Source: Escherichia phage Andreotti
Direction: 5' to 3' (one strand)
Sequence record: MN850610.1
DNA: 64,000 bases
Of this stretch, positions 3,532-55,069 are shown piece by piece (positions within the stretch are counted from its first letter, which is position 1; each line of letters opens with the position of its first letter). Position numbers and translations under genes: made by a program. A model generated the notes under the pieces. The model made no database searches, had not been told where the DNA came from, and worked only from the letters and a program-made list of their open reading frames with translations.

Positions 3532-4032
3532 TCAAGCACAATTTGCTTTCATTACCTTATGGATTCTTTTTTCAGCATCTTCATAAGTTTCTTTAGTAAT
3601 AAACTTAATTGCTGCAATATTGGCATTGTAGAAGAGTCTGAGCTTCGAGTCAATCCTTTTTGTCATTACATCGAACTTATGCTGAAGGTTTGCTTCACCA
3701 TAAACTAGGCCACCTTTTGTGTAGTAGGTTTGGATAATGTAAAAATCAAAAGATTCCTTTCCAAAGCTCTCAATATCTTTTTTAATATACTCAGAAGAAG
3801 TTTCATAAGTCATCCAATCACTCTCCTTAGTGACTACCTTCTTCCGAGTCTTCCCAGCAACTTTTCTTTTGGTCACACTATTAAGCTGCTTCTTACCCAA
3901 ATAGTACTGTCCAGTCTTTTTGCAGTACACTAGGTAGACAAAACCAAAGTGCTTTGCTGGGTCAACTTCACCACATAGTGAAACCCAATGTCCATATTCA
4001 GGGCAATTGCCAAAACCTTTAACTTTAATCAT
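3532..4032 (-). CDS. GIY-YIG-like endonuclease (putative homing endonuclease)
   Basis: N-terminal GFVYLVYCKKTGQYYLGKK resembles the GIY...YIG motif; lies next to an HNH gene. Confidence 0.5.
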   Translation of the reverse strand: MIKVKGFGNCPEYGHWVSLCGEVDPAKHFGFVYLVYCKKTGQYYLGKKQLNSVTKRKVAGKTRKKVVTKESDWMTYETSSEYIKKDIESFGKESFDFYIIQTYYTKGGLVYGEANLQHKFDVMTKRIDSKLRLFYNANIAAIKFITKETYEDAEKRIHKVMKANCA

Positions 4033-6545: not shown

Positions 6546-6694
6546 TTACTGGAAGTTGTGCTTATCTTTAGAAGCTGCTTTACGTGCAGTTTTTCCAGTT
6601 CTTACACGTTTTTCTTCATAGTATTTTGCTGGTTTTCCAGCAGTGGCTTTTAAGGAATCCCCAAAAACTTTTTCAAATGCTTTAGAGTGTTTCA
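6546..6694 (-). CDS. small basic protein (49 aa), not in ORF track (below length cut-off)
   Basis: manual translation MKHSKAFEKVFGDSLKATAGKPAKYYEEKRVRTGKTARKAASKDKHNFQ; GGAGA about 6 nt upstream of ATG. Confidence 0.3.
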
Positions 6695-44504: not shown

Positions 44505-46121
44505 TCAACGTCTAAGCCCCTCATATGGGTTTCCTCTCACTAAGTCTGTGTGAGCACCCATTGATGGTGGCTTGAATAATTTAACTTCGTTAAGACTGTT
44601 GAAAGCATCACTGGTAGCATCCACTTGGTCATCTTTAGTTTTACCATCACCACAAAAACCTTCAAGTTCTTGAAAGTAAGCTTCATTCCAACTACCTCTC
44701 AAGACTTTTACAAGTCCAGCTTCAGAAGCAGCAGAAAATCCCGCAAATCGGGTAACTTTATCTTTATTTGTTGGTTTGGCTCTTGCACGATAGCCTTTCT
44801 CGGCAAGTTTCCTGATGAGGGATGTTGCGTAGGATTTACCAGCAGCGCCTGGGTCTTGAGGGATAAAAATACCAGTTCGCTTACCGTCACTTTCAGCAGT
44901 CAAATTAATTTGTGTTTCGACTCCAGAGGGTCTATCTCTAAATCTTACTACATCAATGATATAATAGCAACCGTCTTTTTTAGATTTACCCATCTTAACA
45001 CCTGCTGTCCAGTCTGGATTAGGGTTAACCTCAGATGGTAAAGTTGCTGCTAAGTCCCATGCTCTAACATCAAATACATCTTCTGGGAGTGAATCAACAA
45101 TTTCACACCATTGTCTTTGCCAATAGTTTGAACCTTCTGCACGAGCCTTCCAGTTACCGAAACGAAGTCTTGCAACGTTTACAGGAGTGTTGTTTTCAAG
45201 CTTACCGCGATACTTTGGTTCTAAGAAGTCAAGAATTGGGTTATCATCAATCGTACCAGAGATGAAGGTGTATGTTTGAGGAATCTCAAGAGGGAACATT
45301 TCAAGAATCTTGTCTCTCTCCCAATCAGAAACCATCACACCATCGTTCATTACATACCAACGAATACGACCACACTTTTCAGGGTCTGGATAACCTTCTT
45401 CATCTAAGAATGGTTCTACCCAATCATAAATAAAATGGTCTCTGTCTGGGTTCATGGAAATCTTCATGTATGAATCGCCTTCAGCACCAGAACGTAGACG
45501 GGTTTGTAGGTATGAAATCTGTGAAGCAGAGAAGTGTGTACCTTCGTCAAAGTAAATAGCTGAGTATTCAATACCCTGATGACCTTCAGCGTGCTTTTCA
45601 AGTTCTAGGTAGGTAAACTTGATAGTTGCCCCAGAAGGGAATGTAATAGTCATCTTCTGCTCGTGAGGAACCCCACCAAACTTACCAAATAGTTTCTTTG
45701 CAGCAGGCCATAAACCACCTTGTAACTGTGTTGTATTTCGACGGAAATATACAGCATTATAGTTAGGGTCTTCAATAAACCTTAAAGAGTCCATTAACAA
45801 TGCGGCAGTTTTACCAGCACCAGCAGCACCACCATAGAGAACCAAGTCAGCATTAGTATTTAAAAAGACCTCTTGAGAACCCGGTTGAGGGGCTACATAG
45901 TTCTTATCAGTCATCAATTTAAAGATGAGGCGAACTTGGTCTGGTGTGTATCTTAATAAAGTCAGAATTTGAGTTGGAAGGAATTTAGAGGGGTCTTTAC
46001 CGAATGATTTAATAATTTCTTTTACTTCATCAGAAAGCCCCAACTCTCCAGCTAGGACTTTCCTAACATCTTCCACTCGCTTCTGCTTAACAGCATTTAA
46101 GTCCATTAAGCACCTCCGCAA
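44505..46121 (-). CDS. terminase large subunit
   Basis: Walker A LYGGAAGAGKTAAL near N-terminus, C-terminal nuclease-like acidic residues; 538 aa; first large gene of virion operon. Confidence 0.85.
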   Translation of the reverse strand: MRRCLMDLNAVKQKRVEDVRKVLAGELGLSDEVKEIIKSFGKDPSKFLPTQILTLLRYTPDQVRLIFKLMTDKNYVAPQPGSQEVFLNTNADLVLYGGAAGAGKTAALLMDSLRFIEDPNYNAVYFRRNTTQLQGGLWPAAKKLFGKFGGVPHEQKMTITFPSGATIKFTYLELEKHAEGHQGIEYSAIYFDEGTHFSASQISYLQTRLRSGAEGDSYMKISMNPDRDHFIYDWVEPFLDEEGYPDPEKCGRIRWYVMNDGVMVSDWERDKILEMFPLEIPQTYTFISGTIDDNPILDFLEPKYRGKLENNTPVNVARLRFGNWKARAEGSNYWQRQWCEIVDSLPEDVFDVRAWDLAATLPSEVNPNPDWTAGVKMGKSKKDGCYYIIDVVRFRDRPSGVETQINLTAESDGKRTGIFIPQDPGAAGKSYATSLIRKLAEKGYRARAKPTNKDKVTRFAGFSAASEAGLVKVLRGSWNEAYFQELEGFCGDGKTKDDQVDATSDAFNSLNEVKLFKPPSMGAHTDLVRGNPYEGLRR

Positions 46122-46127
46122 ATAGAA

Positions 46128-46328
46128 TTATTCAGAGTCTGTAGCAGTCTCTTCTTTCTTAACTTCGAACTTTGCATCAACAGCATCAAGAAGTGCATCC
46201 ATAGATGCTTCTTTAATATCAATACCTGTTGCTACAGACAATCTGTCTGCAATTGCCATGATAGTATTCTGCATAAATTCTAGCTTTTTGTTAGCTTCAT
46301 AAAGTTCTTTATAAACGGTCTCACTCAT
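46128..46328 (-). CDS. hypothetical small protein upstream of terminase (66 aa)
   Basis: ORF track; too small to call small terminase confidently. Confidence 0.4.
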   Translation of the reverse strand: MSETVYKELYEANKKLEFMQNTIMAIADRLSVATGIDIKEASMDALLDAVDAKFEVKKEETATDSE

Positions 46329-46453
46329 TATGTTTTCTCCAAATAATTAACCATGTTTCTCCTTAAAAAAGACGGCACGGAGACCGTCAAGGAGAAACCA
46401 CAATGTACGTCAGAGACATACTGTATAAGTCTTCTTATAAAGTATAACTCTGT

Positions 46454-46514
46454 AAAAAAGCCCTGTCTAAAAATACTCTTCGGTAGCGAAAGGAAGAATA
46501 CTTATAGCAGGGCA
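46454..46514 (-). terminator. extended imperfect hairpin after tRNA array (candidate terminator)
   Basis: GCCCTG...CAGGGC long stem with A-run on plus side. Confidence 0.3.
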
Positions 46515-46540
46515 TTATTATTATTTTAATTGAGAGAGAG

Positions 46541-46616
46541 TAAAATAACTTGGAGAATCCGAAGGGACTCGAACCCTTATAAACCTGTTTTGCAGACAGG
46601 CACATATCCATTTCTG
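46541..46616 (-). tRNA. tRNA-Cys (anticodon GCA)
   Basis: manual cloverleaf: 7-bp acceptor GAATCCG/CGGATTC, T-arm AAGGG-TTCGAGT-CCCTT, anticodon loop CUGCAAA, CCA encoded. Confidence 0.75.
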
Positions 46617-46620
46617 TCAC

Positions 46621-46713
46621 GGATTCAAATTGGAGGAAGATACCAGACTTGAACTGGTACACCGATTTCTCAGCTACTGGCAGTTTAGCAAACTGCTCCC
46701 TTACCTTTTAGGG
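46621..46713 (-). tRNA. tRNA-Ser (anticodon GCU), class II with long variable arm
   Basis: 93 nt; acceptor GGAAGAT/ATCTTCC, anticodon stem GCAGT/ACTGC, loop UUGCUAA, T-loop TTCAAGT. Confidence 0.7.
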
Positions 46714-46724
46714 TTAATCTTCCA

Positions 46725-47459
46725 TTATTTCTGTAATGCGCTCTTCATTTCTGGTGTTGCAATAGTGTCAATCACACCAGTTTTACAAGCATCGTCAAAC
46801 CAGTCTGGTAAGATACCTGCTAAGAACCCATTGATATTCGTTTTAAGGTACTCTGCAATAAGGGCAGCTTCTTCTTCAATCATCTGCACAACTTCATCTG
46901 CATAAGCTGTAATCTTTGAAATACCTTCATTAATCTTACTGACAGCTTGGTTAGCTAAATCAGAAACAGTATCAAGACCCTTATCAATAGCATCTTGTAA
47001 GTCACTTAACACACCATTAACACTATCTAGTGTACTGTTCATCATGTCAATAGCTTTTTGACCATACTCTGTAGCAACACCCATGATACCACTGAATGGT
47101 GTACAACCAACTTGTTCTCCTGCTGCACCCATAACATTGGAATACCCCTTTGCTACCTGCATACGTGATGAAAACTCATCAATAGATTTTTGACCGTAGT
47201 CTGTCAGAGTTTTAGTAGTTGCTGTAGTGCTTGTAAGGCTTGTTGTAAAGCTGTTTAGAAGGACTGTTGTAAGTCCAGCAGCAACAAGTTTCTCCTTCAT
47301 TGTAGGGTCTGTTACAGAACTAATAGAGCTTACAAGTGATGTAGAAGCAGCTACGGTTCCACCGAGAACTGCTGCACCAGTAATAAGCGGGTTAGAGAAC
47401 CCTTTACCAGTTTTTAAGAGATTAAAAATCTCCTTACCTTGTTCTGTCATCTCTTTCAT
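46725..47459 (-). CDS. hypothetical protein (244 aa) embedded in tRNA array
   Basis: track ORF 46725-47522 trimmed to ATG 47459 (MKEMTEQ...) so it does not overlap tRNA-Phe; Ser/Thr/Ala-rich. Confidence 0.55.
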   Translation of the reverse strand: MKEMTEQGKEIFNLLKTGKGFSNPLITGAAVLGGTVAASTSLVSSISSVTDPTMKEKLVAAGLTTVLLNSFTTSLTSTTATTKTLTDYGQKSIDEFSSRMQVAKGYSNVMGAAGEQVGCTPFSGIMGVATEYGQKAIDMMNSTLDSVNGVLSDLQDAIDKGLDTVSDLANQAVSKINEGISKITAYADEVVQMIEEEAALIAEYLKTNINGFLAGILPDWFDDACKTGVIDTIATPEMKSALQK

Positions 47460-47475
47460 TAAGCACCTTTGAAAT

Positions 47476-47552
47476 TGGTAGTCCAGTGGGATTTGAACCC
47501 TCTTCTCATGTTTTTCAGACACGCGCTTTAACCATATAAGCTACTTGGACTA
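47476..47552 (-). tRNA. tRNA-Phe (anticodon GAA), tentative
   Basis: anticodon arm CGTGT-CUGAAAA-ACATG; T-loop TTCAAAT with one stem mismatch; ends approximate. Confidence 0.55.
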
Positions 47553-47557
47553 TAAAT

Positions 47558-47633
47558 TGGGGTGACCTACGGGATTTGAACCCGTATAGACCATGTTCAC
47601 AGCATGGGTCATTACCGTTTATGATAAGGCCAC
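47558..47633 (-). tRNA. tRNA-His (anticodon GUG)
   Basis: acceptor with one G-U, T-arm ACGGG-TTCAAAT-CCCGT, anticodon stem CCATG/CATGG, CCA encoded. Confidence 0.7.
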
Positions 47634-47664
47634 ATTTAAGGACTCTCGCAAGAATCCTTAGAAG

Positions 47665-47740
47665 TGGCAGCGGCATAAGGATTTGAACCTTAATAGGACA
47701 GCTTCAGAGGCTGCTGCATTGCCAGTTATGCTATACCGCT
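47665..47740 (-). tRNA. tRNA-Gln (anticodon CUG)
   Basis: T-arm TAAGG-TTCAAAT-CCTTA; anticodon loop CUCUGAA; CCA encoded. Confidence 0.65.
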
Positions 47741-47745
47741 AAATT

Positions 47746-47824
47746 TGGTACTCCATATCGGATTCGAACCGATACATAACACAGATTTTAAGTCTGGCCT
47801 CTCTGCCAATTGGAGTAATGGAGC
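47746..47824 (-). tRNA. tRNA with Leu anticodon UAA, short variable region (atypical)
   Basis: T-arm ATCGG-TTCGAAT-CCGAT, anticodon loop CUUAAAA, D-loop AAUUGGCAG, A73, CCA encoded, 79 nt. Confidence 0.55.
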
Positions 47825-47826
47825 AT

Positions 47827-47902
47827 TGGCGGGGGATGTTGGAATTGAACCAACTTCTTCGATTTCAAAGACCGAGGTTTTAACCTTGTAAACTAATCCC
47901 CT
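47827..47902 (-). tRNA. tRNA-Gln (anticodon UUG)
   Basis: T-arm GTTGG-TTCAATT-CCAAC, anticodon loop CUUUGAA; 1-72 mismatch. Confidence 0.6.
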
Positions 47903-47910
47903 TTAAATCT

Positions 47911-48468
47911 TTACTTTCTCAGTGGATGAATAAAGAATGCCAACATAACTCTTTCCCTTGAGAATGCTCTTTCTTCTGGGACAACACTTTTTAGTTTCCA
48001 TCCAACATAAATTCTCCAGTAAAACTGTTTACCAAAGATTTTAATTGACGGAATAAAAGCGAATAATCCCCAAGCATTGTTGTTCCACATTAGGAGATAA
48101 CCTGTCTGATTATCTTCAGGGTCAGAACTTACGTTGATATTACCTTTCCACTTAGTAACATCTTTTACATCTCTTCCTAATACATGGTAAGAGAAGTTAT
48201 AAGCTTTGTTTCTCCAGAGCCATCCAACTCTCTGCATATAAACACCGAGCTTGCCAATCTTTCTAATCTTAGCCCATCTCTCAACGTGGCCTTTATCACC
48301 ATCAATCGGGTTGTCATAGGTCTCCATCCATCTGAATCCAAAAGGTAGATGCCCTTTCTTCTCACTGTAGAATGGAACTACGAAAGGTGCTAAGATGACT
48401 GCTAGGGTTGCTGCAAATGGTTCTAGTAAAGCTAGGAAAATCCATGAAGCATACTTCAAATATCTCAT
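47911..48468 (-). CDS. hypothetical membrane protein (185 aa) within tRNA array
   Basis: N-terminal hydrophobic segment WIFLALLEPFAATLAVILAPFVVPF; AAGAGG RBS. Confidence 0.55.
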   Translation of the reverse strand: MRYLKYASWIFLALLEPFAATLAVILAPFVVPFYSEKKGHLPFGFRWMETYDNPIDGDKGHVERWAKIRKIGKLGVYMQRVGWLWRNKAYNFSYHVLGRDVKDVTKWKGNINVSSDPEDNQTGYLLMWNNNAWGLFAFIPSIKIFGKQFYWRIYVGWKLKSVVPEERAFSRERVMLAFFIHPLRK

Positions 48469-48486
48469 CTAAATAGCCTCTTAAAA

Positions 48487-48564
48487 TTGGTGTTCCAAGA
48501 CGGATTCGAACCGTCACTAATACAAGGTTTGAGCTTGCATCCTCTGCCAATTGGGATACTGGAA
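48487..48564 (-). tRNA. tRNA with Leu anticodon CAA, short variable region (atypical)
   Basis: T-arm GACGG-TTCGAAT-CCGTC, anticodon arm GCAAG-CUCAAAC-CUUGU, D-loop AAUUGGCAG, A73. Confidence 0.55.
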
Positions 48565-48565
48565 C

Positions 48566-48640
48566 ATGGTACTCACTAAAGGACTTGAACCTTTTTCTTC
48601 ATCTTGTAAGGGTGATGTTTTACCATATAAACTAAGCGAG
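48566..48640 (-). tRNA. tRNA-Val (anticodon UAC)
   Basis: T-arm AAAGG-TTCAAGT-CCTTT; anticodon stem 5 bp incl. G-U, loop CUUACAA. Confidence 0.7.
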
Positions 48641-48736
48641 TGTGAAAGAGGTCTGAAGTTGTGCCGCTAACTCAACTCCGTGGAATTTGTTACGGTCTTC
48701 AGTTGACACCAGCGGTCTTTCACTTGACCTCTGAAT

Positions 48737-48813
48737 TGGTGCTGCTCACAGGACTCGAACCTGCATTTCCATCCTTACAAGGGATGTGTAATAGCCAATT
48801 ATACGAAAGCAGC
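48737..48813 (-). tRNA. tRNA-Thr (anticodon UGU)
   Basis: T-loop TTCGAGT; anticodon stem 5 bp, loop CUUGUAA. Confidence 0.7.
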
Positions 48814-48819
48814 ATTGTT

Positions 48820-48894
48820 TGGAGCATCCAGAGGGAATCGAACCCTCAACCTCAGTTTGGAAGACTGTAATTTTCCCGTTTAAACTATGGATGC
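48820..48894 (-). tRNA. tRNA-Gly (anticodon UCC)
   Basis: perfect acceptor, T-arm GAGGG-TTCGATT-CCCTC, anticodon loop CUUCCAA. Confidence 0.7.
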
Positions 48895-48900
48895 ACTAAT

Positions 48901-48976
48901 TGGTGGAGTCACTGAGAATTGAACTCAGTTCCCAAGTTTGCAAAACTCGAATTTTAACCATATAAACTATGACCCC
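48901..48976 (-). tRNA. tRNA-Ala (anticodon UGC)
   Basis: G3-U70 pair in acceptor (Ala identity element); T-arm CTGAG-TTCAATT-CTCAG; anticodon loop UUUGCAA. Confidence 0.7.
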
Positions 48977-48982
48977 ATTGTT

Positions 48983-49058
48983 TGGTACAGGTGGAGGGAA
49001 TTGAACCCATCGTCTTACTGATTAAGAGTCAGCCGCATAACCATTTTGCTACACCTGC
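48983..49058 (-). tRNA. tRNA-Lys (anticodon CUU), tentative
   Basis: T-loop TTCAATT with one stem mismatch; anticodon loop CUCUUAA. Confidence 0.55.
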
Positions 49059-49065
49059 ATTAATT

Positions 49066-49143
49066 TGGTAGGAGACAAGGGATTCGAACCCTCAAACATC
49101 TCGTTCTAAGCGAGATAGGTTTACCAATTACCGTCAATCTCCC
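49066..49143 (-). tRNA. tRNA with Leu anticodon UAG, short variable region (atypical)
   Basis: anticodon arm TCTCG-CUUAGAA-CGAGA perfect; T-loop TTCGAAT; D-loop AAUUGGUAA; A73. Confidence 0.55.
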
Positions 49144-49400
49144 ATTAAATCTTTTTAGAGAACTCCTAAGAACCTAAGCAACAAGGTTCCACAACAAGCT
49201 GTAATAACCTTAGAAGCCCTCTAAAAAGACCTAAAAAGGTCTTTGCATAGTCTTGTTTAATCCGGTGACTAGAACCTTTGGAGAGCTTGATATTATCTCT
49301 TCTCCGTGACACCTACTAGGTGTTTTATCAGTGTGTACGACAATACACGAGGGATACCAAAGCAACATCCGAATGAAGCTTGGCTTTAAATCTTATTAGG

Positions 49401-49488
49401 CGGTAAGTAAAGGAGTCGAACCCTCACCGTATCTCTACAGTGGCAACTGTTTTCAAGACAGTTTGGCTACCATTAGCCGCTACCTACC
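49401..49488 (-). tRNA. tRNA-Ser (anticodon UGA), class II
   Basis: 88 nt; 6-bp anticodon stem AACTGT/ACAGTT, loop CUUGAAA; 19-nt variable arm; T-loop TTCGACT; CCA not encoded. Confidence 0.65.
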
Positions 49489-49501
49489 CCTAATAAGATT
49501 T

Positions 49502-49584
49502 TGGCATGGGACGGAGGAGTTGAACCCCTTTGAAACGGTGTTGGAAGCCGTTGCTCATGCCTTAGAGTCTTAACATCGTCCCAT
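49502..49584 (-). tRNA. tRNA-Trp (anticodon CCA) with enlarged D region
   Basis: perfect acceptor ATGGGAC/GTCCCAT, anticodon arm ACGGC-UUCCAAC-ACCGU; about 7 extra nt between acceptor and anticodon stem. Confidence 0.5.
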
Positions 49585-49724
49585 ACTATAATTCGAAGCT
49601 TACCGTATTATCTCAACACTGTAAAGCCCCTTCTCAGATTATTTACATGTTCTGGAAAACATGAGATACAGACCACCTCCCTACAGGAAGACCCGCTAAG
49701 GTCGTCTAAGTAATCTGCTAACTA

Positions 49725-49801
49725 ATTGGCACACCCTACAGGATTCGAACCTGTAACTAACGATTTAGAAGACCGTTGCTCTATCCAATTGAACTAAGGG
49801 T
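49725..49801 (-). tRNA. tRNA-Arg (anticodon UCU)
   Basis: T-arm ACAGG-TTCGAAT-CCTGT; anticodon loop CUUCUAA. Confidence 0.65.
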
Positions 49802-50049
49802 GCATTAATCTTTAAAGACTCTCTTAGAAAGCCCTTAAAGATGCCCACCTTATTAATCATACCGTGGGCGAGTACGCCAAATTCTTTGATGAGGGATTGG
49901 AAGACCTCACTGGTGTTTAGCCTATCAAGCTACTGCCAGAAAAACATTGTCGTTTGCATTTATTTTAAATTTGCAAAATAGACGCTACGCAACGAAAACT
50001 AAGGGTACTATAAAGTAGTCACATCTCAATGTCAACAACTTTATTGAAT

Positions 50050-50124
50050 TTGGTTGTAGGTGAGGGTATCGAACCCTCTTCTAACGGTTATCAGCCGTTT
50101 GCATTACCATTTATGCTAACCCAC
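50050..50124 (-). tRNA. tRNA-Ile (anticodon GAU)
   Basis: T-arm GAGGG-TTCGATA-CCCTC; perfect 5-bp anticodon stem, loop CUGAUAA. Confidence 0.75.
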
Positions 50125-50126
50125 AA

Positions 50127-50203
50127 TTGGAGGTTCAGATGGGATTCGAACCCACATTCATAGGGCTTATGAGACCCTTGCATTACCTTATCTGCGACTG
50201 AAC
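50127..50203 (-). tRNA. tRNA-Met (anticodon CAU), elongator-type
   Basis: perfect acceptor GGTTCAG/CTGAACC; T-loop TTCGAAT; anticodon loop CUCAUAA. Confidence 0.65.
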
Positions 50204-50207
50204 CATT

Positions 50208-50283
50208 TTGGTAGAAGTGGAGGGATTCGAACCCATCGCCTGTCAGATTAAAAGTCTGCCGCATCACCATTCTGCTACACTTC
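50208..50283 (-). tRNA. tRNA-Lys (anticodon UUU)
   Basis: T-loop TTCGAAT; anticodon loop CUUUUAA. Confidence 0.6.
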
Positions 50284-50293
50284 CATTAAATTA

Positions 50294-50440
50294 TCTTTGT
50301 AGATAAGCTACCCAGACTTGCTTAAGGTCTGTAGCGATGTGCCTTTATGGGTTTAAAATCTAGAATTTACCCTTTCACCCTTTGTGGTCGCATACTCACA
50401 GGTAAGCTTAATAACTTATCTACAAAGATAATTACCAGAC
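50294..50440 (-). repeat. structured non-coding element bounded by a perfect 17-bp inverted repeat
   Basis: TTATCTTTGTAGATAAG (50294-50310) and its exact reverse complement (50424-50440) enclose 113 nt containing nested inverted repeat GCTACCCAGAC / GTCTGTAGC. Confidence 0.6.
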
Positions 50441-50713
50441 CGTTATTTATCATCTTAAGTGCTACCATTACACCAACTCGACATCTGCCGAGTGAAGGAA
50501 TCGAACCTTCGCCTTTTCTTTACCGAGAAATAGATTGTTTAAGTTTTGCTGTAAACGGTCTTCTGTAAATTTGTTGAGCCAGACCAAGTTTTAAATTTTT
50601 CAAAATTGAATTGGCTTGAAATTTTAAGTAACTTGCTGAATTTGGTCTTCTGCTCCTTTAAAGGATACTCGTAAGAACCCTTTAAGGGAGGGGCTAAATA
50701 GCCCTCTCAAAAT

Positions 50714-50789
50714 TGGCGAGGTATGCGAGAATCGAACTCGCGGCTCAGGAGAGACAGTCCCGTATTTTGCCCATCTAAACTAATACCCC
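50714..50789 (-). tRNA. tRNA-Asp (anticodon GUC), tentative
   Basis: acceptor GGGGTAT/ATACCTC, T-arm GCGAG-TTCGATT-CTCGC; anticodon loop CUGUCUC has U at position 37. Confidence 0.55.
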
Positions 50790-50795
50790 AAAAAT

Positions 50796-51224
50796 CTATG
50801 TACCATTTCTTAGGTACTTCTCTTTACGCCTTGCTGGATTGTAGTGCTTGCGTCCTTCTGCGTTTTTAGCAAGTCTGCAAGGTTCACACCTACAACCTCT
50901 TCTATAACCAGACACTGTGCCATGTTTAATTGGTGTGTATTTCCTATCACCAATCTGGGCTGGCCTAGTTGCTTTTGAATTACATTGTATGTGGCTGTAA
51001 GATATATTGTCAAGTGAGAAGAAAAGCTCTTTTGCATTCTCTTCATGTCTCCAAGGAACTTTATGTTCTATAGAGAAATCAACTCTGGACATTTCTTTTC
51101 CACAATGGTGACACTTATTCTGTCCAGTTTTACAAACCAAATCAAAGAGTAAATCTTTAACAAGCCTGTTCTGGGCTGTTCCTAAGCTCATACCAAGTTG
51201 TGACTTGTAAACTTCATTCTTCAT
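50796..51224 (-). CDS. HNH endonuclease (putative homing endonuclease) inside tRNA array
   Basis: CHHCGKEMSRVDFSIEHKVPWRHEEN...H (HNH-type His/Asn spacing); C-terminal GYRRGCRCEPCR. Confidence 0.7.
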   Translation of the reverse strand: MKNEVYKSQLGMSLGTAQNRLVKDLLFDLVCKTGQNKCHHCGKEMSRVDFSIEHKVPWRHEENAKELFFSLDNISYSHIQCNSKATRPAQIGDRKYTPIKHGTVSGYRRGCRCEPCRLAKNAEGRKHYNPARRKEKYLRNGT

Positions 51225-51246
51225 AGTATCAACATCTTATTAAAAT

Positions 51247-51331
51247 TGGTGCGCCCATCTGGACTCGAACCAGAAACCTTGAAAGGGACAGTTTTACAGA
51301 CTGCTGCATTGACCATCTCTGCCATGAACGC
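51247..51331 (-). tRNA. tRNA-Tyr (anticodon GUA), class II
   Basis: 85 nt; T-arm TCTGG-TTCGAGT-CCAGA; anticodon loop CUGUAAA; hairpin variable arm; CCA encoded. Confidence 0.65.
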
Positions 51332-51341
51332 ATTTAAATTT

Positions 51342-51418
51342 TGGCGGTTAGTCAGGGATTCGAACCCTGTGCCATTCGCTTAACAGGCGACCGCACATAC
51401 CTTATGTGCTTCCTAACC
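51342..51418 (-). tRNA. tRNA-Asn (anticodon GUU)
   Basis: T-arm CAGGG-TTCGAAT-CCCTG; anticodon loop CUGUUAA. Confidence 0.65.
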
Positions 51419-51495
51419 TTAATACATTGCCAGACCGTGTTTTTTCTTTTATCCGCAAAAAGTATTTTGTTGCTGTAAACGGTCTTCTGTAAATT

Positions 51496-51571
51496 TGGAG
51501 GCGGGTGCAGGAGTCGAACCTGCCGATACCATGCTAATGAGACATGTGAGACGCCCTTTCTCTATACCCGC
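51496..51571 (-). tRNA. second CAU-anticodon tRNA (Met, or Ile2 via lysidine), irregular acceptor
   Basis: T-arm GCAGG-TTCGACT-CCTGC; anticodon loop CUCAUUA; acceptor pairs only with a 1-nt register shift. Confidence 0.45.
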
Positions 51572-51663
51572 AATTCTTAATGACCAGACCAAATCTCTTC
51601 TTTGTCCGATTTACCTTCAGATGAATAAGATTAAGTTTGCTGTAATTGGTCTTCTGTCAAAAC

Positions 51664-51741
51664 TGGCGTTCCAGAAGGGATTTGAACCCTCAGATATCCA
51701 CTTTGAAAGAGTGGTGACTATACCATTTTGTCTACTGGAAC
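51664..51741 (-). tRNA. tRNA-Glu (anticodon UUC)
   Basis: perfect acceptor; T-loop TTCAAAT; perfect 5-bp anticodon stem, loop CUUUCAA. Confidence 0.7.
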
Positions 51742-51748
51742 ATTAATT

Positions 51749-51825
51749 TGGTCTCTGTTGGAGGATTTGAACCTCCGGCCTTACCGCCCCAAACGGAACG
51801 CTCTACCAAGCTGAGCTAAACAGAG
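51749..51825 (-). tRNA. tRNA-Pro (anticodon UGG)
   Basis: perfect acceptor CTCTGTT/AACAGAG, T-arm GGAGG-TTCAAAT-CCTCC, anticodon loop UUUGGGG (G37). Confidence 0.7.
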
Positions 51826-51990
51826 ATAAACTTTTCAAACTCTATGTAACCACTTTAACATTATTTTTTAGTGGTTGTCAAGAACTTTTTTAAAATATTT
51901 TTCAGTATCTTAGAAAAGCTCTCGTTTCGTCTCTATGTAGAACATATTAAAGGGTATCAAACACATTGTCAATACCCTTTTTAAAACTTT

Positions 51991-53406
51991 TTACCAGATA
52001 TAACGGTCAATCATTACTGCTTTGAGCATTACACTGATTGGGTCAAACTTCTCACCACCAAGCAGAGCTTTTAAAGTGGCTGGAGAGAACCCTGATACCA
52101 TTGCTACACCGTTATCCTTAACAGATACTTCGCAAGTACCATTACGGTTTGCTAAGTACCAGAATACCAGTTGTGGCATCTCATATCCAGCTTTTTTGTA
52201 CTTACTCTGAATTGCTTCAAAGTTTGTACGTCCGTTAGCTCCATCAACCTGATTGAACTCCATATCGGAGAAGATGATAAGCTTACTTGGCATATCTTTC
52301 TGAGTCAAGTTGTTTCTTTTACCTGTTTCAAGAATGCGGTCAAAAGCTGCTTGTAAGTTAGTTGAGCCATATTCAACGTGTCGCATCACCTGACGATGAC
52401 GGTTTCGTAAATCACCACTCAGTTCGATGAAGTGAGGGTTTGTTGAATAAACCATCAACTCATTCTTAAAGCAACCTGTATTGCGTTCTGCTACATACAA
52501 GGCAAGTGATACACCAATATCAAGAGCAGTAATGGAGCCAAAATTCACCCAAGACATTGAGCTTGAAACATCAGACATACATAGAATGTTTTCACCCTCT
52601 GCCATCCAGTTTGGTAGTGCTTTCCACTGCTCATTAGCAACATCTGCATTACCATACTTAACAGATTTAATCACATCGTATGGGTAAACAGCACCAGCGT
52701 TAATCTTAGTCTCACCTTTTGATAAGGACTCGATGTAAGCTTTGTAACGTTCCCCATCTTTACGGTTAAAGAGTTTTTGGTAACGTGCAGCAGCAAGTGA
52801 AGGAATCTTACTGTAGTCAATCTTACCAAACTCATTAGCAGAGATTTTTTGCTCAACTGTATCAGAGAGTGCAGACAACAGTGTGCGGTACTCTTTCTCA
52901 CTCAAGTTGGCAAATTTGCAGAAACGTTTTACAAACTGCTTGTGACGTGGTTTGACTCGTGGTAACCACTTAGCTGCCAAACCTGCTGTTGCAGGGTCTA
53001 GTAATGCTGCTTCTAAATGTTTGAAGGCATCTGTCTCGAAACGAGTACCTACGAAGATTTTGAAGTCATCAAAACGACCAAGTTCTGCAATCTTATCCAT
53101 AATGCGAAGAACCTGTGCAGGCTCTAAAACTTTGTCTTCAATCGCTTGAAGCAAAACAGTTCTGAAGGCTTTACGCTCACCCATACCTTCTCGTACATCT
53201 CGCATATGCAGTAAAATACGAACTGAAACATCAACATCCTCACGCAAAGCTTTGTAGAACAGGTCTGGTAAGATTTCTACATTGCTACGACTTGAACCAG
53301 CAGCTTTGTAAAAGTCTACAAGAGCAGACATTGATGAAGTATGGTTTACAGCACCATTTTCAGTTCGACCTGCATGAAGGTGCGCATGTTTAAATAACTC
53401 GCTCAT
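51991..53406 (-). CDS. von Willebrand factor A (vWA) domain protein with N-terminal helical domain (471 aa)
   Basis: MIDAS-type DxSxS motif in LCMSDVSSSM followed by alternating hydrophobic strands; about 250-aa helical N-terminal region; directly upstream of tRNA array. Confidence 0.6.
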   Translation of the reverse strand: MSELFKHAHLHAGRTENGAVNHTSSMSALVDFYKAAGSSRSNVEILPDLFYKALREDVDVSVRILLHMRDVREGMGERKAFRTVLLQAIEDKVLEPAQVLRIMDKIAELGRFDDFKIFVGTRFETDAFKHLEAALLDPATAGLAAKWLPRVKPRHKQFVKRFCKFANLSEKEYRTLLSALSDTVEQKISANEFGKIDYSKIPSLAAARYQKLFNRKDGERYKAYIESLSKGETKINAGAVYPYDVIKSVKYGNADVANEQWKALPNWMAEGENILCMSDVSSSMSWVNFGSITALDIGVSLALYVAERNTGCFKNELMVYSTNPHFIELSGDLRNRHRQVMRHVEYGSTNLQAAFDRILETGKRNNLTQKDMPSKLIIFSDMEFNQVDGANGRTNFEAIQSKYKKAGYEMPQLVFWYLANRNGTCEVSVKDNGVAMVSGFSPATLKALLGGEKFDPISVMLKAVMIDRYIW

Positions 53407-53487
53407 ATTTTACTCTCTTCTCTCATTTGTTGTTTGATGTGACAGACTTTAGAGCAACTTTGTAGAGTCTGTCAACATCTTTTAAAA

Positions 53488-53859
53488 TTATTTTTTGAGG
53501 GTTGCAACAGCAGAGAACGTTGGTTTGTTATCTGTCTGAGACTGACCACCGTTATCAGGAGTCTTCTTAGTGTCTGCTGCAAGTGCTTTCATCTCACCTG
53601 CTGAGTGAGTAAAGATGGTTTTACCGACCTCAATCATGCTCTTGATGGTTACGTCATCTGTGTTTAACCCGAACTCTGCAAGCTTAGCAGCGTCCCTTGT
53701 AACAATCGCCTCAAACAACTTTGCAGCAAACTCAGCAGAATTATCAATGGTTAGTTGAGCTTTTACGAGTGAACTTTTGTTACGTGAGCCTTTCGGTCTT
53801 CCAGATGGGTTTCCAGACTGGCCTTTTTTAAACTGGCCTTTGTTTGTTCTGTTTTTCAT
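53488..53859 (-). CDS. hypothetical basic protein with N-terminal GNPSGRPKG motif (123 aa)
   Basis: N-terminus KKGQSGNPSGRPKGSRNK; Ala/Lys-rich. Confidence 0.5.
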   Translation of the reverse strand: MKNRTNKGQFKKGQSGNPSGRPKGSRNKSSLVKAQLTIDNSAEFAAKLFEAIVTRDAAKLAEFGLNTDDVTIKSMIEVGKTIFTHSAGEMKALAADTKKTPDNGGQSQTDNKPTFSAVATLKK

Positions 53860-53988
53860 TGGTATGCCTCTTATAAGACCTCTTAAAAGGCTTTTAAGAT
53901 AAAAGATAGATATCCAGAAAGATATCTGTTTAAATAGCCTTTTTAGAGGAACCTTTTAAGTTATCTTCTAAGTATTTATAAGCCTACA

Positions 53989-54010
53989 CCTTGTCAAGTA
54001 CTTTGTCAAC
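53989..54010. promoter_or_regulatory. conserved control element CCTTGTCAAGTACTTTGTCAAC in divergent intergenic region
   Basis: 20 of 22 nt identical to 11341-11362; lies between divergent operons. Confidence 0.4.
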
Positions 54011-54108
54011 AACTTTTTTAACTTGCAATAGTTCTTGACTTGTTGTATGGATTACTGTACCATCTTACTTAAAGCTGTAGGTCTGCCTTGTTCTACAAAG
54101 GAGACTTA

Positions 54109-54270
54109 ATGAGAAAATCAAATAAACCGAAGAAAGGTAAGAATACCAATCACTGTAAGGAATCAAAAAGGGTAGAGTTAATCTACTATTCATCCTCTGA
54201 AATTGGTCTGTACCTGTTCTTTCAAAATTACAGAAGACAAGAGGATTATCTATGTGTAGTTCCCAATTAG
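54109..54270 (+). CDS. hypothetical small basic protein (53 aa)
   Basis: track ORF 54088-54270 trimmed to ATG 54109 with AAAGGAGA RBS. Confidence 0.35.
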   Translation: MRKSNKPKKGKNTNHCKESKRVELIYYSSSEIGLYLFFQNYRRQEDYLCVVPN

Positions 54271-54485
54271 AAATCGCAGATATTATAGATTTATATCAAA
54301 CTGCAAAGAGTCATGGCTATATAACCTCAATTGGAAAGAATAGTCACTATGATGCTTTGACTGGAATGTATTTCAGGGCAATGGCTCAATCTAGTGAACA
54401 ACACTTAATGGTTTCTTCCAGTGAGTTTACTTCGTTTCTCTATTGCAGCAAAATTATAAATCGCAGGAGAACTGAAAAATGTTAA
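54252..54485 (+). CDS. hypothetical protein (77 aa)
   Basis: ORF track. Confidence 0.35.
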   Translation: MCSSQLEIADIIDLYQTAKSHGYITSIGKNSHYDALTGMYFRAMAQSSEQHLMVSSSEFTSFLYCSKIINRRRTEKC

Positions 54486-55069
54486 CAGTAAGTTTTAATT
54501 ACAATAGTGATGGCTCTGTATCAATTAATTCACCATATGCAAATGACCTACTTAAAGAGCTAGTCAATCAGTGTGATAGAGGTCTTCACTATGTTCAAAA
54601 TTCTTTTAAACAGAAGACTATTGCTAATAACTTGATGCGTGTAACAGTGACGGCATCGAATCCAAATTATGACTTTGATAGTGAAAGTCCGTACTCATTA
54701 GTTGCGCTTGGAGAGAGCAGCCAATTCAAACTTGTTTGCCACGACTCAGAAACATTCCTTAAGGTATTTTCAAACCTTATCCATAATAATAAGTACAGCT
54801 ACGTTGATGGTAGTGTAAACTTCTATCCAGCAAACTATACATGTTTGTTGGTTGACAATATGAGAAAAAGTAAGCAAGAACCTACAGAAATTTCATTTGA
54901 TGTGAACTCTAGTCCAGACGCAGAAACAAGTAAGAACTTTGATATGAGTTACGCATTGTCACTCAGTAAGAAATCCGAGTTCATTGATTATGTCAATGGA
55001 TTTGGTTTTAAGTTTGATGAGAGTATGAATCTTAAAAAACTTAAGAACCTACTTAAGACCAAAGCTTAA
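54479..55069 (+). CDS. hypothetical protein (196 aa)
   Basis: ORF track. Confidence 0.55.
   Translation: MLTVSFNYNSDGSVSINSPYANDLLKELVNQCDRGLHYVQNSFKQKTIANNLMRVTVTASNPNYDFDSESPYSLVALGESSQFKLVCHDSETFLKVFSNLIHNNKYSYVDGSVNFYPANYTCLLVDNMRKSKQEPTEISFDVNSSPDAETSKNFDMSYALSLSKKSEFIDYVNGFGFKFDESMNLKKLKNLLKTKA

Follow-up and report, generated by a model that had tools for sequence, protein, structure and literature searches.

From bacteria to humans, the Ro60 protein forms conserved particles with Y RNAs; these are a major autoantigen, and their function is only partly understood. To our knowledge, work on Ro in phages has only just begun, with one Thermus phage. Genes for YrlA RNAs adjoin Ro60 genes on the same strand, and these RNAs carry a GNCGAAN0-1G motif near the 5' end (PMC4201824). 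In bacteria, the Ro60-bound Y RNA tethers the Ro60 ring to PNPase, and the Ro60 protein and Yrl RNAs of Thermus phage phiLo bind the PNPase of their host and attenuate it (PMC12135203). Here we analyze a locus in a 64,000-nucleotide (nt) stretch of Escherichia phage Andreotti (record MN850610.1), referred to below as the window, in which a gene for a 471-residue protein with a von Willebrand factor A (vWA) domain (51991..53406, minus strand) is followed by an array of 25 tRNA genes on the same strand (46551..51825) with four small Y-like elements interleaved among them. We consider it probable that the protein is a compact, strongly diverged homologue of Ro60 that most likely forms ribonucleoprotein particles with these four phage-encoded Y-like RNAs.

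The window comes from a Felixounavirus (a Felix O1-like myovirus) that is ~98% identical to Escherichia coli O157 typing phage 1 and wV8, and its bases 51800-53900 share 97-98% identity with those two phages and more than 200 further records. An earlier note, made from the letters of the DNA alone, had described the gene product as a helical N-terminal region followed by a vWA fold that carries a MIDAS (metal-ion-dependent adhesion site), encoded at the head of a tRNA array, and both descriptions hold. The open reading frame (ORF) starts with ATG; an AlphaFold2 model based on an alignment of 43 homologues confirms the domain order, with a helical TROVE-like ring at about residues 1-265 and the MIDAS-bearing vWA domain at about residues 270-471; and the same-strand tRNA genes begin with tRNA-Pro, 165 nt past the stop codon. 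The translation includes ENILCMSDVSSSMSW, and LCMSDVSSSM is present, so that the DxSxS motif is D279-V-S281-S-S283. The MIDAS is complete: D279, S281, S283, T349 and D381 are invariant in the 43 homologues, which are 40-89% identical, and so are numerous arginines and lysines of the N-terminal half.

The AlphaFold2 model, computed from the 43-sequence alignment, has a mean predicted local distance difference test score (pLDDT) of 89.4 and a predicted template modeling score (pTM) of 0.89. It shows a short beta-hairpin (residues 13-22) and about 17 helices as far as residue 263, and residues 274-471 make up a beta-alpha-beta vWA fold. The predicted arrangement is that of Ro60 and TROVE proteins, a ring of helical repeats closed by the vWA domain. 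The earlier note had proposed structure prediction and comparison with Ro60 as a check, and the outcome favors its suggestion: the vWA fold with its MIDAS is present and the closest folds in the PDB are those of Ro60. The top eleven Foldseek matches are all Ro60/TROVE proteins, aligned over their full length with E-values of 2e-9 to 3e-7 and including the Ro60 of phage phiLo, and the next tier consists of proteins that have the vWA domain only, at E ~1e-3. For a comparison of sequence profiles, we assembled a canonical Ro60 profile (A4) from human Ro60, a query verified by its whole-length match to PDB 9nen_A (residues 1-538, 1223.7 bits), and four canonical phage Ro60 proteins. In hhalign, our profile A1 matches A4 with a probability of 83.9% and an E-value of 7.8e-6 over 237 columns, which cover residues 190-444 only, that is, the last helices of the ring and the vWA domain. 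The MIDAS of the 471-residue protein aligns with DVSASM, GGTD and TDNE of Ro60. As judged from predicted structure and partial profile alignment, the protein is probably a distant, compact and strongly diverged Ro60 homologue that lies outside the Pfam TROVE family.

The family to which it does belong is clear from hmmscan searches of Pfam, in which residues 172-264 match DUF2828 (PF11443; 101.2 bits, cut-off 29) and residues 274-455 match DUF7788 (PF25043; 148.8 bits, cut-off 27.1). Both gathering scores are exceeded, and PHROG 850, an 'RNA-binding protein' group, matches the entire protein (residues 1-471, E 2.9e-183), which makes it a member of the DUF2828/DUF7788 family. Sequence records name such proteins 'RNA-binding protein' (RefSeq) or, in several GenBank entries, 'vWFA protein'. 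Canonical phage Ro-like proteins, in contrast, match TROVE at ~1e-47 to 1e-49 and vWA_Ro60 at 1e-47 to 1e-60, and the same split recurs among the phages we compared: the canonical proteins consist of TROVE plus vWA_Ro60, whereas gp54 of mycobacteriophage Snenia and the proteins of Klebsiella phage FBKp34 and Listeria phage List-36 consist of DUF2828 plus DUF7788. In tblastn searches, the 471-residue protein matches 709 of 50,697 phage records and human Ro60 matches 358, mainly actinophages, and no genus outside the actinophages is prominent in both counts. The larger set spans Felixounavirus, cluster L mycobacteriophages (where the product is called 'Ro-like RNA binding protein'), T4-like Vibrio and Aeromonas phages, and phages of Campylobacter, Listeria, Staphylococcus, Enterococcus and Bacillus. 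By these sequence criteria, phages hold two separate Ro-like protein families. The DUF2828/DUF7788 fold also occurs in protist giant viruses, namely Pithovirus LCPAC304 (TM 0.87), CroV, ChoanoV1, Marseillevirus and Bodo saltans virus. Searches of NCBIfam and PADLOC with the 471-residue protein gave no match, and the latter result means that the protein is not a known defense component. A phmmer search against PDB sequences returned nothing meaningful, and in a profile search of the same sequences Ro60 was the top vWA match, aligned at the MIDAS, with an E-value of 0.43 that is not significant.

The candidate RNA partners lie within the tRNA array. In each of the four elements a 7-bp terminal helix is accompanied by the motif (A/U)CAGCAA and by an unpaired G, and all are encoded on the minus strand, that of the gene. 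Element 1 (51582..51656) is flanked by tRNA-Glu and tRNA-Met, with 7- and 9-nt spacers; its helix AGACCAA/UUGGUCU is followed by UU-ACAGCAA, and it has a 44-nt loop and the unpaired G. Element 2 (51428..51489), for which the flanking genes are tRNA-Met and tRNA-Asn and the spacers 6 and 9 nt long, has the helix AGACCGU/ACGGUCU, again followed by UU-ACAGCAA, and the unpaired G. Elements 3 (50577..50652) and 4 (50433..50565) both lie in the 430-nt gap between tRNA-Asp and tRNA-Lys; the former has the helix of element 1 and the motif variant UCAGCAA, and the latter is a long, YrlA-type form. A covariance model (R2) that contains no window sequence and was built from other phages only finds these elements as its four top matches in the 64-kb window when run without filters, all on the minus strand, with scores of 29.7 bits (element 1, E 2.3e-4), 34.6 bits (element 2, E 1.7e-5), 24.6 bits (element 3, E 3.3e-3) and 23.6 bits (element 4, E 5.8e-3); the next match scores 17.5 bits. 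A possible fifth copy at 48694-48703, where there is a ACAGAAGACC-like motif, was rejected because it has neither the 3' strand nor ACAGCAA.

Element 4 is the one that most resembles YrlA. An 8-bp terminal helix and a single-stranded ACAGCAA enclose, in order, a small hairpin, a T-arm (GAAGG-UUCGAUU-CCUUC), a 7-bp hairpin and a D-arm-like hairpin (GGUGU-AAUGGUA-GCACU); the minimum free energy (MFE) of the fold is -32.9 kcal/mol (z -2.3), and the T-arm alone scores 14.9 bits on the tRNA model. According to the MFE fold and alignment A3, the order of parts is the same as in the elements of Snenia (L002:6522-6654) and FBKp34, both of which match Rfam YrlA. The architecture is accordingly that of YrlA, a terminal helix around a T-arm and a D-arm with an acceptor-like hairpin between them, while element 4 itself gives no match to the YrlA model (RF02553; gathering score 69 bits) and the GNCGAAN0-1G motif of YrlA is absent from it, with ACAGCAA in its place. 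The earlier note had spoken of tRNA-like oddities in the array. These are real, but they lie further in than the first gap, and one of them carries the YrlA-like T-arm and D-arm. In the 165-nt gap after the stop codon (51826-51990), where a Y RNA might have been expected, there are instead two promoter-like repeats.

The common design was discovered by comparing the intergenic regions of FBKp34 and Snenia with the tRNA array of the window. It comprises a terminal helix, two nt, ACAGCAA, a variable loop, the 3' strand of the helix and an unpaired G, and a locus may have from one to four copies in tandem, one of them enlarged by a T-arm, a hairpin and a D-arm. The full Rfam YrlA model matches at 39 bits (E 2e-5) on the same strand and directly 3' of the DUF2828 gene in FBKp34 and Snenia. 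Across the three DUF2828 loci with such matches (FBKp34, Snenia and L106), scores are 38-40 bits with E-values of 1e-4 to 2e-5, and matches beside canonical phage Ro60 genes reach 28-47 bits, likewise under the gathering score. No family in Rfam 15 matches the ACAGCAA elements.

A scan for helix plus ACAGCAA shows how closely the design follows the gene. Among 75 diverse IMG/VR loci it finds 46 same-strand elements within 600 nt of the gene, against ~5 for permuted 7-mers, and among 80 loci from bacterial and archaeal genomes it finds 99, against ~8, and the opposite strand yields just 2. All 22 seed elements have the G after the 3' strand, even though this base was not used to select them. 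A first covariance model, R1, was built from loop-trimmed seeds; it mis-scored elements with long loops and was replaced by R2, which was made from natural matches. On both strands of 843 kb, R1 gave 62 matches, every one of them on the gene strand. In these matches 98.5% of helix cells are paired, all 7 pairs change on both sides, compensatory cells number 146 against 39 in shuffles, and pairing in slid registers drops to 31-46%; the pairing counts are inflated because the alignment (A5) was fitted to the model, and the E-values of the covariance models are rough. At E <= 1, R2 has no match in the tRNA region of phage T5 or in four canonical TROVE loci. The canonical loci have sub-threshold YrlA matches with a CGAA-type 5' motif, and no helix plus ACAGCAA adjoins the canonical phage Ro genes, the single match lying ~500 nt downstream in coding sequence.

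Closer to the window, six relatives each have all four elements (three short and one long), on the gene strand and among tRNAs. A more distant 88-kb relative (L014), whose protein is 47% identical, has the same organization, in which the gene is followed by tRNA-Pro as the first of 19 tRNAs, and three short elements and one long element lie between or beside the tRNAs; the UCAGCAA variant of element 3 is found in all L014 elements that were read directly. Overall, phages that span four bacterial phyla have the elements next to DUF2828 genes, invariably on the strand of the gene. The DUF2828 gene has tRNA genes within 4 kb of it in 22 of the 75 viral loci and in 30 of the 80 genome loci, and 238 of 239 such tRNAs are on the gene strand. 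In three bacterial contigs (L159:3564-3671, L162:3649-3771 and L126:3295-3539), tRNA-model matches of 41.9-51.3 bits, full-length or with inserts, stand beside ACAGCAA elements upstream of DUF2828 genes; the L159 match (3587-3660) is inside an ACAGCAA element (3564-3671), and a second match in L126 overlaps an element. These matches suggest that the tRNA-like cargo of the RNAs varies.

Set beside the described systems, the locus shows both likenesses and differences. As in Ro60/Rsr and its Y RNA or YrlA, the vWA motifs DVSxSM, GxT and an acidic TD/SD align with the 471-residue protein, and small RNA elements with a terminal helix and a motif near the 5' end lie beside the gene on the same strand, one of them with a T-arm and a D-arm. 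Unlike Ro60, the window protein is ~70 residues shorter and is unmatched by the Pfam models TROVE and vWA_Ro60. Unlike Y RNA and YrlA, its elements carry (A/U)CAGCAA rather than GNCGAA/GGUCCGA and occur in up to four copies among tRNA genes. An RtcB/RtcA operon, or a PNPase link like that of the RYPER complex, would be hypothetical for the window system. The Ro60 of phage phiLo (PDB 9kop, 9l5y) also differs: its chain is named 'TROVE domain-containing protein', unlike the window protein, and it is not recovered from PDB sequences by profile A1 at E <= 10. Moreover, phiLo Yrl1 and Yrl2 were found through the CGAA motif, not ACAGCAA, and the phiLo Ro60 gene is outside any tRNA array (PMC12135203). 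A nearer relative is gp54 of Snenia, a cluster L mycobacteriophage, which is annotated 'Ro-like RNA binding protein' and belongs to the same DUF2828 plus DUF7788 family (E 9e-72, with 34% of residues identical along the full length). Immediately downstream of gp54 are three ACAGCAA elements, including a YrlA-like one; the locus differs from that of the window in that they are not inside a tRNA array and in the phylum of the host. From size and annotation only, we presume that LeBron gp53 is probably another member of the family. That protein is moderately toxic when overexpressed in Mycobacterium smegmatis (PMC13148394), which is the sole functional datum that probably concerns the family.

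We suspect that a particle of this kind would be built and used as follows. The predicted HEAT/TROVE-like helical ring, closed by the MIDAS-bearing vWA domain, would recognize the 7-bp covarying terminal helix, the single-stranded (A/U)CAGCAA directly 3' of its 5' strand and the unpaired G after its 3' strand, with the motif occupying the position that GNCGAA/GGUCCGA has in canonical Y RNAs (PMC4201824). Because the elements are wedged between tRNA genes, their ends are probably released by the tRNA-processing enzymes of the host, with RNase P cutting where the next tRNA begins and the preceding tRNA undergoing 3' trimming. One of the four RNAs would add a tRNA-like module of T-arm and D-arm, like bacterial YrlA. 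Since Ro60-Y RNA and phiLo Ro60 engage PNPase (PMC12135203), the particle probably docks, by analogy, on host enzymes of RNA decay, processing or repair, and once docked it may control the turnover or quality control of structured RNAs, above all the phage tRNAs, during infection.

Several observations weigh against this interpretation, in addition to the fitted alignment and rough E-values mentioned above. The earlier note's idea of a Ro60/TROVE-like identity is supported by the predicted fold, the hhalign match at residues 190-444 and the MIDAS, but not by Pfam, where hmmscan at E <= 1 gives DUF2828 and DUF7788 only and leaves TROVE (PF05731) and vWA_Ro60 (PF25045) unmatched. Because hhalign aligns from residue 190 onward only, homology of the N-terminal two-thirds to Ro60 finds no support at the sequence level. 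RNA binding by any DUF2828/DUF7788 protein is something we infer from sequences and models. The earlier note's link to tRNA-like RNAs stands as far as the architecture of element 4 and the equivalents that match Rfam YrlA in related phages are concerned, and fails for the window element itself: neither Rfam Y_RNA nor YrlA has a match in the window, whether in a permissive scan of 45500-54500 and sub-stretches or at E <= 10 on a 200-nt stretch. Folding energies are unremarkable for three of the four window elements (z -0.3 to -1.6). Just 30 of the 75 viral loci and 52 of the 80 genome loci have an exact-motif element within 600 nt, and Aeromonas phage Ah1 has no nearby element. Finally, a PNPase or RNA-repair partner was not identified in the phage, the rest of whose genome was not searched for RtcB, RNA ligase or polynucleotide kinase.

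The elements could also be cis-acting signals rather than stable RNAs. According to this alternative, the protein is Ro60-like and the ACAGCAA stem-loops are leader or autoregulatory sites, or processing punctuation of tRNA arrays. Their position is suggestive in this respect, in that 90 of the 99 nearby elements in bacterial genome loci are upstream of the gene, as expected of a 5' leader, and those of the window and L014 fall exactly between tRNAs; the weak predicted stability of most short elements points in the same direction. We nevertheless think this explanation unlikely, because the design is that of a Y RNA, with a terminal helix joining the ends, a motif beside the 5' strand and a variable loop, and because the long forms contain YrlA-type tRNA-like modules. 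The one to four tandem units may also either precede or follow the gene, and the genes of canonical Y RNAs, too, are same-strand neighbors of Ro60 (PMC4201824). Even cis-acting sites would still imply that the protein binds the elements.

Alternatively, the protein may be a generic MIDAS/vWA adaptor for protein-protein contacts, such as a co-chaperone, an assembly factor or a trap for a host protein, with nearby RNA elements that have nothing to do with it. vWA/MIDAS domains mostly bind protein, what the MIDAS does in Ro60 itself is unclear (PMC12135203), several GenBank records say no more than 'vWFA protein', and Pfam offers only domains of unknown function. The match to Ro60, however, extends over the full length and includes the helical ring, with vWA-only proteins scoring far lower; no MoxR-type AAA+ gene adjoins the gene; and across phyla the conserved RNA element goes with the gene and its strand, whereas control loci lack it. 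On balance, we regard such an adaptor as rather improbable. That the elements are spacers or mobile repeats of phage tRNA arrays whose closeness to the gene is coincidental is hardly credible: the AGACC core helix common to the four window copies could stem from local duplication and phage tRNA arrays often contain other stable RNAs (T5 RNAs I, III and IV, for example), but the elements stand beside DUF2828 genes even in loci without tRNAs within 4 kb, they are absent from the T5 array and from that of Gordonia phage Sixama, which has a canonical Ro60, and their helices covary between lineages while the motif stays fixed.

The array and its surroundings have other features that merit description. 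Two promoter-like sites, TTGACA-17-TAATAT and TTGACA-18-TAAAGT, lie between the stop codon and tRNA-Pro (51852..51972, minus strand) and could drive transcription of the array, and a third, TTGACA-18-TAAAGT, lies ~40 nt 5' of the start codon of the gene (53446..53475, minus strand); all three are consensus matches only, and shuffled sequence contains at least as many such sites as the region does. A 148-nt element (50285-50432, minus strand), placed directly between tRNA-Lys and the long Y-like RNA, has a closing stem of ~23 bp, an MFE of -46.6 kcal/mol (z -5.5 versus shuffles) and no Rfam match; it may be another structured RNA of the array. At ~49500-49586 (minus strand), in the 238-nt gap between tRNA-Arg and tRNA-Ser, a cloverleaf-like sequence called by neither ARAGORN nor Rfam has a 10-bp acceptor-like stem, a T-arm-like hairpin and a 3' end reading ...CAUGCCA. 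The tRNA-Met (CAT) at 51496-51572 (minus strand), an ARAGORN call with a Y-like element on either side, is atypical in scoring 28.5 bits on the Rfam tRNA model (gathering score 29). An ORF for a 142-residue HNH endonuclease (phrog_23251; 50796-51224, minus strand) is inserted between tRNA-Tyr and tRNA-Asp, which are adjacent in typing phage 1, where the HNH gene is absent from this position. Weak matches to fragments of Rfam tmRNA and permuted tmRNA (49804-50108, minus strand; E ~0.003, under the gathering scores) fall in a 247-nt gap that also holds a strong promoter-like site (50035-50007).

Comparable neighborhoods occur in other phages. In Listeria phage List-36 (L007, 2426-2977 and 6810-8021), the DUF2828 gene is flanked on one side by tRNAs clustered with a ROOL RNA, which lies ~1 kb upstream of it and scores 91.5 bits (gathering score 99.1), and on the other by an RtcB-type 'tRNA splicing ligase' ~1.3 kb downstream, so that the region looks like an RNA-repair or RNA-metabolism neighborhood. 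In Gordonia phage Sixama (L092, 1959-5537), the gene at the head of a tRNA array on the same strand is a canonical Ro60 of the TROVE type; this layout mirrors that of the window, and the array also contains a tmRNA (88 bits) and a YrlA match (46.8 bits) among its tRNAs. These two layouts, together with the tRNAs near DUF2828 genes elsewhere, indicate that Ro-like genes beside tRNA arrays are a recurrent theme in both families. The T5 record (L173, 28000-44000) lists eight 'stable RNAs with unknown functions' among its tRNAs, some of them tRNA-like and none matching the ACAGCAA model, which suggests that small non-tRNA RNAs are common in phage tRNA arrays and are of more than one kind.

A last comparison leads outside bacteria and their phages. 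The nearest counterpart of the design in Rfam is the Class I RNA of Dictyostelium (RF01414). These abundant RNAs resemble the phage elements in size (~60 nt) and in having a terminal helix with compensatory changes, in this case of 6 bp, then CCUUACAGCAA directly 3' of its 5' strand, a loop that varies and CUG(U) at the 3' end (PMC7919456). They differ in being eukaryotic, in having a promoter each and in having the RNA recognition motif (RRM) protein Rnp1A/CIBP as their partner (PMC7919456). The Rfam model Dicty_Class_I gives weak matches exactly on phage elements, at 15-25 bits and all under its gathering score of 41.5; those in the window are at 51431-51484 and 51585-51651 (minus strand; best 23.9 bits), and those in a second locus are at L003:6532-6594 and 6621-6671 (best 25.2 bits). 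These matches vanish in larger searches, and the link is a lead only. Class I RNAs and phage elements both have the terminal helix and UUACAGCAA, with a loop that varies and a 3' end of CUG. It is conceivable, if doubtful, that DUF2828/DUF7788 proteins and terminal-helix (A/U)CAGCAA RNAs make up a second, hitherto unrecognized branch of Ro60-Y RNA systems, extending over phages of at least four bacterial phyla, protist giant viruses and eukaryotes, with the Dictyostelium Class I RNAs, through their UUACAGCAA, as its eukaryotic members and a Ro-like DUF2828 protein as their partner.

The Ro-like nature of the protein family is already present in annotations, and the window protein is an ordinary member of a known, uncharacterized family. 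The RNA partner and a pairing that recurs across many phages, on the other hand, do not seem to have been described before; a literature search, which left subscription journals outside its scope, found no paper on DUF2828 proteins paired with Y-like RNAs. The system would be a variant of Ro60-Y RNA with another protein family, another RNA motif and several copies of the RNA among tRNAs. It is present in tractable phages of E. coli and Salmonella, including Felix O1, wV8 and the typing phages, and it also provides a lead, which can be tested, for the Dictyostelium Class I RNAs, whose function has been unknown since their discovery. If our interpretation is correct, it would give identities to several unannotated gaps in phage tRNA arrays, and phages would possess a second, much larger Ro-like family with a candidate RNA partner and a motif of its own.

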